Shown in pieces: positions 44,441 to 47,548 of a DNA stretch of 64,000 nucleotides. The notes beneath the pieces are model-generated. The model worked only from the letters and a program-made list of their open reading frames with translations. It was not told the DNA's origin and did no database searches. Each line of letters opens with the position of its first letter. Positions within the stretch are counted from its first letter, which is position 1. This DNA is from a virus. The DNA lies in IMG/VR virus record IMGVR_UViG_3300041409_000348, positions 1-64,000 of that record. One strand, 5' to 3'. Position numbers and translations under genes: made by a program.

Positions 44441-44776
44441 GTTACCGGCGAGTACGGGTGCCACGTTTCCGCAGGTCGCAACCGGAGGTGCCGTGACTGT
44501 CCCCGTGAAAGTCACGGTCCCCGAAACGGTCCTCGCCGCCGTCGATGAGATCCGCGGCGACGAGTCACGGTCCGCGTGGATCCTCGGCGCGATCGGCCTG
44601 CGCCTGTCCCCGCTCGCCGAAGCGGTCGCCGCCGTCATCGAACCCGCCGTCGACCCCGGCAACATCATCCCCACCGCGGTCCTCACCGACCGCCCGTCCG
44701 TCCAGGTGTGCAAGCACCCGAAAGCACGGGTACTGCGAGGCTTCTGCGGCGCCTGCGGCACGGGCGGGCTGGCCTG

Positions 44777-45007
44777 ATGGCCACCGTCCTGTACACCGCA
44801 CTGGCCCCGCTGACCGTGTACTCGGTGATCAGCACATGGGACTGCGCCGCCGGGGACGTTCTGCCGCTCGACCCCAGCAAGCAGTCCACCGCCAGCCTCC
44901 TGGCCGCCGGGAAGATCGAACCTGCCGCGCCCGGCGCGACCGACACTTGCACCCCGGCAAATGTGCAAAGGGGCGTTCCCGGGCTTCACGTGGGCGTCTC
45001 AAACTAG
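44777..45007 (+). CDS. small, probably virion-associated protein ending GVSN
   Basis: 3' part of ORF 44576..45007. Confidence 0.5.
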   Translation: MATVLYTALAPLTVYSVISTWDCAAGDVLPLDPSKQSTASLLAAGKIEPAAPGATDTCTPANVQRGVPGLHVGVSN

Positions 45008-45108
45008 CCCTGACCTGCTAGAATGGCCATGTTAAACCCCGGCGAGCGAGGGTGCGCAAACACCTGACTCACTCCCGGGGGCGTTCGATCTGGTGAAAGC
45101 AGACCGAC

Positions 45109-45984
45109 ATGACCAAGCGTACAGGCGAGGCGTTTGTCTACTACATACGCCGCGGTGACCTGATTAAGATCGGGGCGTCGGCCAACATCCGGGTGCGGCT
45201 CAGCGCGCAGGCTTATGACGAACTCCTCGCGGTTGAGCCCGGGTACTTCAGCCTTGAGAAGCGCCGGCACAGGCAGTTCGCCGAACACAAGGAACCCCTG
45301 GGTCGCGGCCAGCACGAGTGGTTCAAGCCGGGAGAGACCCTGCTCGGGCACATCGCTGCGATGCGGGCACTCCACGAGCTGCCTGATCTGTCCACGCGCT
45401 ACTGCCCGCGTTTGGGCACGACCGCACAGGCCATACTGGCGCTGCTGCCGCCGCTACTGATGCAAGTTCCGGCCGGCACGATGGAGCGGCTCATAGCCAA
45501 GATCGTCATCGACGGCGAGTCGGGATGCTGGAGACGCCCCGTCGGGATCAGCGCCAAGGGCTACAGCCAGTTCTGGTTCGGCGGCAAACTGCAAGCAGCG
45601 CACCGCGTCTCGCACATCCTGTTCGTCGGCCCCATTCCGGACGGCCACGAGGTCGATCACGTTAAGGCGCGCGGATGCCGGTTCAAGGACTGCATCCGGC
45701 CATCTCACCTTGAAGCCGTGACCGGGCGCGAGAACACACTGCGCGGCGGCAACATGGCCGCCATTCACGCCCGCACGACACACTGCCCGCAGGACCACGA
45801 GTACACGCCCGAGAACACGTACTTGATCAAGTCCCCAAACGGCAGGGATCGACGCCAGTGCAAGATCTGCACCAGGGAAAAGGCGCACGAGCGGCATCAT
45901 CGGCTCAAGACCGACCCGGCATTCCGCGAGACGCGCCGCCTGGGACAACTCAACCGACGGACGCGCGAGCGCGCCACTAGCTAG
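45109..45984 (+). CDS. HNH homing endonuclease with N-terminal GIY-YIG/T5orf172-like domain
   Basis: FVYYIR..IKIG...EWF; AHRVS...VDH...CIRPSHLEAVT.REN; THCPQDHEY. Confidence 0.85.
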   Translation: MTKRTGEAFVYYIRRGDLIKIGASANIRVRLSAQAYDELLAVEPGYFSLEKRRHRQFAEHKEPLGRGQHEWFKPGETLLGHIAAMRALHELPDLSTRYCPRLGTTAQAILALLPPLLMQVPAGTMERLIAKIVIDGESGCWRRPVGISAKGYSQFWFGGKLQAAHRVSHILFVGPIPDGHEVDHVKARGCRFKDCIRPSHLEAVTGRENTLRGGNMAAIHARTTHCPQDHEYTPENTYLIKSPNGRDRRQCKICTREKAHERHHRLKTDPAFRETRRLGQLNRRTRERATS

Positions 45985-46005
45985 CGGCGGGGGGTGAGAT
46001 TGAAG

Positions 46006-47548
46006 ATGTCACCCCAAGACCCCCAGAAGGCGCGGATCGTGGCGTTCCCCGACTTGAAGCCGGCGACACGCCATGACCTTATGCGCGGGGAGCTCGGCAC
46101 CGAGTTCGACCGCAACCAGATGTTCGGCCTGTACTCGGGTGGTGATGTCTTCTTAGTCCGACTACGGCACCGCCACTGCCCGGGACTTCCAGACCATGCT
46201 CAGCCGCGACGGCCAGGCCGCGGCGCTCGAGGCGGTCCTGACGCTGCCGATCCGGCAGGCGTCCCGCGCGATCGAGCCCGGCAAGAACGACAGCGGCGAG
46301 GCCGATTTCTGCCACTCGGTGCTGTTCGCGCCGCACACCTCGGGCGGCATGAGCACCCCGATGCAGGACGTGATCGGGCAGGTCACCTCGGCGCAGATTT
46401 TCAAGCTCGCCTTCTTTGAGCTCTGCTGGAAGATCCGGGAGCGGGACGGCGGGGTCGCCATCGACAAGATGGCCTACCGGCCGCCGGCGACCTGTGAGCT
46501 GAAGCGGGACGCCCGCACGGGCGCGATGGACGGGTTCCGGCAGCAGGTGTGGCAGTTCGGCGGCAACCTCAAGCAGGACAAGGCATCCAAACTGCCCGGC
46601 TACGTCGAGATCCCCAAGATCAAGTCGTATGTCCACGTCAACGGCCGGCACCGGCAGCCCCTCACCGGCACCAGTGAGCTTGAGCTGACGCACTGGGTCC
46701 ACCAGACCAAGCTCAAATTGCTGTACCTCTGGTTCCAGTTCCTGGAGCAGCAGAGCCTGCCGAAGGTCATCGTGTACGGCCAGGACCAGCGGGAAGCCAA
46801 CGCGAAGGCCGACGACATCGCCTCGATGCGATCGTCCGGTGTCGTGGGGTTCGCCCGCGACCCGCAGGGCGCCAAGTCGTTTGAGATCCTGGAGTCCTCG
46901 GGCTCGAAGGGTGCCACTCAGTTCGCTGACGCCCTGTCGTTCCTTGAAACGTGGCAGACCGCGAGCGTCCTGGCCGGGTTCACGGGCCTGTCCTCGCTCG
47001 CGGCGATGGGCCGCGGTTCCCTCGCGTTGTCGCAGGACCAGTCGGCGTTCTTCCTGAAGTCCCGGCAGGCCATCAGCCTGGAGATCGCCGAGTCCATCAC
47101 CCACGAGGTCATCGCCCCGCTGGTGACCCTGAACTTCGGGCCGGGCGCGAGCTATCCGCGGTTCACGTTCGGGGCCCTGTCGGATGAGTCCGGCTCCCAG
47201 CTGGTCACCTTGTTCCAGGCTCTCGCGGTCGCACCCGCGTTGCAGGTGCCGGCGGGGATCCTGGACATCATCACGGAACGTCTGGCGACGTTCCTGAACC
47301 TGGACGTGGATGCGGTGACGCAGATCGTGCAGCAGGGTGCGAAGGACCGTGAGGCGCAGGCGGTCGCGCAGGCCCCGGCGGGGATGCCGCAGCAGTCGGC
47401 GGCGGCGCTGGGGCATCTGGCGGGGGGAACAGCGGCGGCGGCGGCGATAGCGAAGAAGGCTTTGGCGCATGCCGGTAACCAGCCACTGCCGGAGGACATC
47501 ATGCAGCCGTTCGACGTGCCGAACATGAGCGTGAACCCGAAGGCGTGA
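46006..47548 (+). CDS. portal protein; +1 frame break at TTA 46153-46155
   Basis: frame 1 ...GELGT...GGDVF joins frame 2 DYGTATARDFQTMLSRDG...; lies between TerL and MuF. Confidence 0.8.

Follow-up and report, generated by a model that had tools for sequence, protein, structure and literature searches.

A UUA-led gap in the portal gene of an uncultured soil phage: a candidate site of translational bypassing

Known bypassing systems and the portal locus

The large terminase genes for which UUA-mediated bypassing was described are those of Streptomyces phage phiHau3 and of two prophages, StrepC.1 and S. catenulae (Smith et al. 2013, J Bacteriol 195:4924; PMC10732093); their UUA-led blocks are 7-10 nt long (PMC10732093). 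The terminase gene of phiHau3 carries two such blocks of 10 nt each, and it was for these that bypassing was proposed by Smith et al. (2013). Mass spectrometry later detected the junction peptide in E. coli (Antonov et al. 2023, RNA Biol, PMC10732093), and a +1-frame stop placed in the phiHau3 gap increased recoding 2.25-fold instead of reducing it (PMC10732093). Three terminase genes and partial experiments have been the basis for this kind of bypassing, which according to its proposers has been largely unnoticed (PMC10732093). Our search of the published literature found TTA- or UUA-led bypass for the terminase cases only.

The window, i.e. the whole stretch of DNA analysed here, is the first 64 kb of the 103,563-bp record of a phage from soil with a GC content of 68.8% over the whole genome. 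The first-pass annotation spoke of a prophage; the record is instead a complete viral contig with terminal repeats (CheckV: complete). The direct repeat at its ends (G000) is exactly 69 bp long and could be either an assembler overlap, the genome being circular or circularly permuted, or a physical repeat. The features of the window and the inserts of its relatives are collected in Table 1. The gene at issue is the essential portal gene. Its downstream frame stays open between 46157 and 47548, and the portal body, matching Portal_Mu (PF06074) at 1.4e-29 over profile positions 4-321 of 336 (significant over the domain) and the portal family PHROG 113 at 7e-31, encodes by these matches a Mu-type portal protein. 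The sequence reads GGT GAT GTC TTC TTA GTC C GAC TAC GGC at 46141-46168, as the first-pass annotation had given it. Judged by its sequence, the gap in this gene is best read as one of the phiHau3-terminase kind, which it extends to another gene family and to uncultured phages.

The locus resembles the phiHau3 type in several ways. An in-frame UUA stands right after the last conserved codon, in the window and at seven related loci, and opens a short frame-breaking block that is missing from homologues and lies at a conserved junction of a low-copy phage gene. The setting is a high-GC actinophage, the in-gap +1-frame stop that is tolerated in phiHau3 is present in the window, and a near-cognate landing triplet (UUC to UCC in the window) lies beside the resume codon. 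Unlike the phiHau3 case, the window gene is a Mu-type portal and not a terminase, and its gap is near the 5' end, at codon 49. Gaps in the portal family are 4-14 nt long and occupy three positions, and three genes are gapped in one genome. Before the gap, the window has the nascent peptide GGDVF and phiHau3 has KGWG, and no stimulatory stem-loop was detected in the window.

In T4 gene 60 (50-nt bypass, mobA cassette; Bonocora 2011; Manning and Atkins, bioRxiv 10.1101/2022.08.31.505936), as in the window, the gap is early (codon 46 in T4, codon 49 here) and a homing-endonuclease-like gene adjoins the gapped gene; take-off from one codon, landing on a matching one and a slow A site would also be shared. 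The window differs from it in having a gap of 7 nt rather than 50, a landing triplet that is near-cognate rather than identical, and no take-off hairpin that we could find; the T4 take-off codon is followed by a stop, whereas that of the window is followed by the rare sense codon UUA, with UAG only in the +1 frame. Moreover, the presence of an endonuclease does not track the gap among the relatives of the window. The endonuclease-like gene of the window (Pfam: HNH_3 1.8e-9, T5orf172 weak) has a 42% identical homologue in the same place at the interrupted locus L044, no endonuclease gene precedes the portal at the interrupted loci L005, L010 and L060, and relatives of HNH_3 or NUMOD3 type precede seven intact portals. 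With an endonuclease upstream at 2/5 interrupted and 7/~24 intact loci, we rejected a link between the gap and the adjacent endonuclease as unsupported, and the analogy with gene 60 and mobA is therefore unsupported at the portal site. The terminase-portal interval is a hot spot for free-standing homing-endonuclease-like genes (44441-46005 in the window; L002, L003, L008, L013, L044, L054, L056, L057), which come in two architectures, a T5orf172/GIY-YIG-like N-domain being followed by a C-terminal part of either HNH_3 or NUMOD3 type.

Two further systems can be compared. The Byp elements of Magnusiomyces capitatus mitochondria, so far as they are described by Lang et al. (2014, PNAS 111:5926, via PMC10732093), share with the window genome the presence of many gaps per genome, take-off and landing triplets that match fully or at two out of three positions, and a poorly decoded codon after take-off; they differ in being 27-55 nt long, mobile, structured, and mitochondrial rather than phage-borne. 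Hungry-codon hops and +1 frameshifts in E. coli (Weiss 1987; Gallant and Lindsley 1998; prfB, Ty1 type) share a starved A-site codon and re-pairing of the peptidyl-tRNA downstream. They are, unlike what is seen here, low-level errors or overlapping +1 slips on slippery codons. A programmed +1 frameshift of the prfB/Ty1 type was considered for the window and rejected, since UUC to UCU is non-cognate, the next +1 codon met by a slip from UUC is UAG, and the relatives need a +2 shift.

Table 1. Features of the window and TTA-led inserts (in square brackets) of related loci
Feature	Position	Strand	Remarks
Phd/YefM antitoxin-like ORF	1178-1426	minus	TTA 1297-1295, Leu in AGVLVSP; weak Pfam match, E = 0.002
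C5 cytosine methyltransferase gene	about 9156-10522	minus	TTA at 10483-10481, TTAC at about 10481-10484, after codon 13: GGC TAC [TTAC] GAG GGC
Homing-endonuclease-like gene, 291 aa	45109-45984	+	T5orf172/GIY-YIG-like N-domain and HNH_3; directly 5' of the portal gene
Shine-Dalgarno-like GGGGGGTGAG	45989-45998	+	7 nt 5' of ATG 46006
Portal 5' coding segment, 49 codons	46006-46152	+	M-S-P-Q-D to G-G-D-V-F; proposed take-off codon TTC 46150-46152
Coding gap, TTC[TTAGTCC]GAC, 7 nt	46153-46159	+	in-frame TTA 46153-46155, landing-frame (+1) TAG 46154-46156, proposed landing TCC 46157-46159; missing from uninterrupted homologues
Portal body, 462 codons and stop	46160-47548	+	resumes at GAC (Asp) 46160-46162, +1 frame; Portal_Mu domain
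ATG, Met64 of the joined protein	46196-46198	+	gene-caller start of a 450-aa ORF (P0004); no Shine-Dalgarno sequence
Zero-frame stop TGA	46417-46419	+	UUA read as Leu would give a 138-aa product, 88 codons out of frame
Neck-type gene	about 60209-60692	+	TTAC 60311-60314: CAG CAT [TTAC] GAG GGC
L044, portal			TTC[TTACCTCC]GAC, 8 nt
L045, L060, portal			TTC[TTACCCGGTTC]GAC / GAT, 11 nt
L046, portal			TTC[TTACATAGCGCCTC]GAC, 14 nt
L010, L058, portal			TAT / TAC[TTAA]GGC, 4 nt, two codons beyond the F-D junction
L005, portal			ACT[TTAGGCT]GAG, 7 nt, at codon 32
L068, neck gene			ATT[TTAGGGCATT]TAC and CTT[TTAGCGGCTA]GAT
L066, neck gene			CAC[TTACCC]GAG, in-frame
L067, neck gene			CAA[TTATCCGA]CAT

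Portal genes with and without the gap

A search with the joined portal sequence returned 413 relatives, most of them 507-512 aa long with 97-100% query coverage, including the 49 N-terminal residues. Throughout 22 full-length homologues (protein alignment A1, 65-87% identity, the portal body being 65-87% identical to its homologues), the motif G-D/S-V-F/L-D-Y-G has no residue between F/L and D; the intact homologue P0007, for example, reads GGDVF-DYGTYTARDF. A DNA alignment (A3) agrees with the protein alignment in that the insert is absent from intact homologues. Since no residue stands between F and D in more than 20 intact homologues, exactly 7 nt, TTAGTCC, are extra in the window. This is the comparison with uninterrupted portals that the first-pass annotation had proposed as a check, and it also bears out the suggestion that the 49 upstream codons are the portal N-terminus: the homologues cover them and start upstream of the MLSRDG at which portals might otherwise have begun. 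The 5' segment is 84% identical to the N-terminus of the intact relative L002. The nearest cultured portals are those of Streptomyces phages (38-40% identity), whose annotated proteins align from residue 1, so that the N-terminus belongs to the annotated portal there. A scan of isolate-genome contigs showed no relative.

These observations bear on the view that no recoding takes place, the gene giving a truncated 450-aa portal from ATG 46196, with or without a separate 49-residue N-terminal peptide that bears an out-of-frame tail. Gene callers do give portal ORFs of 447-462 aa, Met64 is invariant, and the Portal_Mu domain begins near residue 61; the AlphaFold2 model of an intact homologue is of low confidence over the first 50 residues (N-terminal pLDDT below 50, model mean 56). 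In those homologues, Met64 is an internal residue. ATG 46196 lacks a clear ribosome-binding site, as the first-pass annotation had remarked, with no GGAGG-like motif in the preceding 20 nt, while ATG 46006 has the strong motif GGGGGGTGAG. The G-rich Shine-Dalgarno motif and the ATG are retained in every interrupted relative with upstream sequence, and the N-terminal segment is under purifying selection in all interrupted lineages (pairwise dN/dS of 0.09-0.33 among interrupted loci). The zero-frame tails, by comparison, vary from 2 to 94 codons and are not conserved. Together with the presence of the N-terminus in portals of cultured Streptomyces phages, and with a TTA start and a take-off-like end of every break that would be left without explanation, this makes a truncated portal quite unlikely. 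Gene callers cut these portals at Met64, and such genes are mis-annotated in metagenome catalogues. The 450-aa P0004 was called on two contigs, and further N-truncated calls are P0036 (41 contigs), P0048, P0020, P0092 and P0115. Some portal homologues are about 350 aa longer (P0024, P0028 and P0061, ~857-866 aa; also L031, L035 and L060), the extra length being an insertion near residue 230 with intein/LAGLIDADG domains (PF14528, PF05203); in L060 an intein-sized insertion occurs together with the 11-nt TTA gap.

Inserts of this kind are found in other copies of the gene too. When both halves of the portal were searched by tblastn in IMG/VR and metagenome assemblies and read codon by codon, the halves were in different frames at seven further loci among ~45 distinct related portal loci, each with a TTA-led insert. 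In every portal insert the in-frame TTA comes straight after the last conserved codon. The inserts are 4, 7, 8, 11 or 14 nt long, giving both +1 and +2 shifts, and fall at three positions, all within the first 52 of ~510 codons (L001, L005, L010, L044-L046, L058, L060). Because the lengths differ by non-multiples of three between conserved genes, the insert block appears not to be translated.

The sources of the interrupted loci are IMG/VR records of two samples and ENA assemblies with four accession prefixes. It could be argued that a record from a metagenome assembly holds an assembly error, or that the allele is dead through a frameshift mutation in a defective genome. We regard this as very unlikely. 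With this spread of sources an assembly artefact is not credible, the matched pairs differ synonymously elsewhere, and one complete genome holds three such sites. Random inserts in 69% GC DNA that all open with an in-frame TTA would have a negligible chance. Pairs sharing the same gap differ mostly at synonymous sites (dN/dS 0.29 for L045/L060 and 0.13 for L010/L058), and both flanks of the gap are under protein-coding selection, the 5' segment by its dN/dS and the body by its 65-87% identity to homologues. In a separate observation, L045 is a short ENA contig whose 5' end may be chimeric: its positions 154-165, just 5' of the portal ATG, read CTCTTCCGATCT and resemble an Illumina adapter remnant. 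Its 11-nt gap is confirmed by L060.

The portal-body tree requires a minimum of 4-5 gains or losses to account for the interrupted genes, and the window is sister to the intact L002 with support of 100/99. The interrupted alleles are scattered, and so do not form one decaying lineage. Gaps at the identical F-D junction occur in three separate portions of the tree, which could reflect either repeated origin of the gap at this junction, or its movement by recombination, or multiple losses of an old gap. Repeats of the TTC..TTC type would make loss of a gap easy by precise deletion.

How the ribosome may cross the gap

We consider it probable that the portal is one gene in two frames, and that a UUA-stalled bypass from UUC to the near-cognate UCC joins them into a 511-aa product. 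Translation would initiate at ATG 46006 and proceed until peptidyl-tRNA-Phe sits on UUC 46150-46152 with UUA in the A site. This codon, near-unused at 68.8% GC, is presumably read slowly or conditionally in an actinomycete-like host. The stalled ribosome would drop its codon-anticodon pairing and slide 7 nt, tRNA-Phe would re-pair with UCC 46157-46159, and decoding would resume at GAC 46160, giving a portal of the predicted hop length that reads ...GGDVF-DYGT..., as in the uninterrupted homologues. The landing-frame UAG within the gap would terminate premature +1 slips; a landing-frame stop lies inside the gap in the window, L005, L010/L058 and L046. The stall, the slide, the landing triplet and a regulatory use are inferred. 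On the Smith/Atkins model, one such use might be to confine bypass to times when charged tRNA-Leu(UAA), the bldA-type tRNA of Streptomyces, is scarce. The portal, neck and methyltransferase proteins, like the terminase in phiHau3, are needed in few copies, so that a low bypass efficiency would be tolerable.

The proposed landing is consistent with the pattern of the family. The final three insert bases of the portal inserts resemble the take-off codon (TTC to TCC, TCC, TTC or CTC; TAY to TAA; ACT to GCT) and equal it at two or three positions in every locus, with a perfect TTC..TTC repeat in L045 and L060. When the portal, neck and methyltransferase gaps of this phage group are taken together, landing equals take-off at two or more of the three positions in 13/14 gaps, three of which are perfect. 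By chance, 0.2 would be expected per gap; the binomial tail, 8e-9, is inflated by alignment choice and shared ancestry, but the trend itself is clear. The 7-nt hop from UUC to UCC that the first-pass annotation had predicted would thus fit: its landing matches at two of three positions, with a mismatch of UCC to the Phe anticodon at the middle position, and adjoins the resume codon GAC.

The strongest competing account is a +1 frameshift after UUA has been decoded, in which tRNA-Leu reads UUA, the ribosome passes over G46156 and TCC is decoded as Ser, giving GDVF-L-S-DYG with two extra residues. The first-pass annotation had argued that a simple +1 slip would run into the TAG. This holds for a slip with UUC in the P site, but fails if TTA is read and G46156 skipped thereafter: taking TTAG as one step leaves a 513-aa frame open and avoids the in-gap TAG. 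At the window site taken alone, 7 is simply 6+1, and an ordinary in-frame TTA elsewhere in the genome shows that UUA is decodable. The relatives tell against it, since those with 8, 11 and 14 nt would need a +2 or -1 shift at unrelated sequences and would add 3-5 residues at a junction motif that is indel-free in more than 20 homologues. Slippery re-pairing is not available either, as UUA to UAG is not cognate; an extra Leu at the methyltransferase site would enter the SAM-binding motif I; and mass spectrometry of phiHau3 gave the bypass junction and not an insertion. As both +1 and +2 shifts are present, the inserts cannot all be covered by one frameshift rule or by reading TTAN as a quadruplet, and the +2-shift inserts favour the hop over the +1 slip. 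We therefore hold frameshifting after UUA to be unlikely. With a mean pLDDT of 56, the AlphaFold2 model is useless for judging the fit of two additional residues. A PDB profile search gave weak portal matches only, from residue 61 onward.

It may also be asked whether the gap is removed before translation, by some unspecified editing or excision of TTA-led blocks in RNA or DNA. To our knowledge, no mechanism exists for the exact removal of 4-14 nt. The likeness of take-off and landing triplets is a ribosomal signature, and E. coli given the phiHau3 gap on a plasmid bypassed it. We find removal before translation barely plausible.

RNA folding in 90-nt windows at 8 gapped and 3 intact junctions gave no excess stability and no common fold; z-scores ranged from -1.2 to +0.9 in gapped loci, like the intact ones, and the MFE of the window had z = +0.37 against shuffles. 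The G-rich, Shine-Dalgarno-like stretch 5' of the take-off codon codes for the conserved Gly-Gly-Asp, and so cannot count as a signal. The frequency of the motif TTCTTAGTCC in the window was not above chance.

TTA-led gaps beyond the portal gene

A codon-usage scan found only four in-frame TTA codons in the 103-kb genome, three of which sit at gene breaks. The fourth is an ordinary Leu codon in the Phd/YefM-like ORF. With one ordinary in-frame TTA and three others at breaks, it would seem that the host can decode UUA and that the codon is hardly ever used. A search for tRNA genes with ARAGORN was negative for both the window and the whole genome, and a phage-borne tRNA for UUA or one reading quadruplets was therefore rejected as unsupported.

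The other two breaks are in the methyltransferase and neck-type genes, whose gap sites have the 12-mer TTACGAGGGCCT in common and, like those of the portals, are near the 5' end. When TTAC is skipped in the methyltransferase, motif I aligns gaplessly with M.HhaI, and the take-off TAC equals the landing TAC; skipping TTAC in the neck gene gives YARYQH-EGLDLHHP. Neck homologues in three relatives with intact portals have TTA-led gaps of their own, 6-10 nt long and at other positions (two in L066, two in L068 and one in L067). Scanning the whole genome for more TTA-led gaps gave nothing beyond the three known sites; eleven other high-scoring candidates were discarded as out-of-frame artefacts by their flanking translations.

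Natural variation in these phages acts as a mutagenesis series. At one junction there are gaps of 7, 8, 11 and 14 nt with landings UCC, UCC, UUC and CUC, and to these are added two other positions in the portal and two other genes in the same genome. This variation is comparative evidence against simple frameshifting, and it yields testable rules, namely that UUA occupies the A site and that the landing triplet matches the take-off codon at 2/3 or 3/3 positions.

More tentatively, it is conceivable that TTA-led gaps are a widespread and evolving layer of gene control in soil actinophages, in which several low-copy virion and DNA-modification genes per genome would be gated by the charged tRNA-Leu(UAA) of the host. 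Gaps might arise, change in length (4-14 nt) and be lost by exact deletion between take-off and landing repeats, with a strong preference for the first ~50 codons and for the same F-D junction in distant lineages. If such gating is true, the phage would build particles only when the physiological state of the host is suitable.
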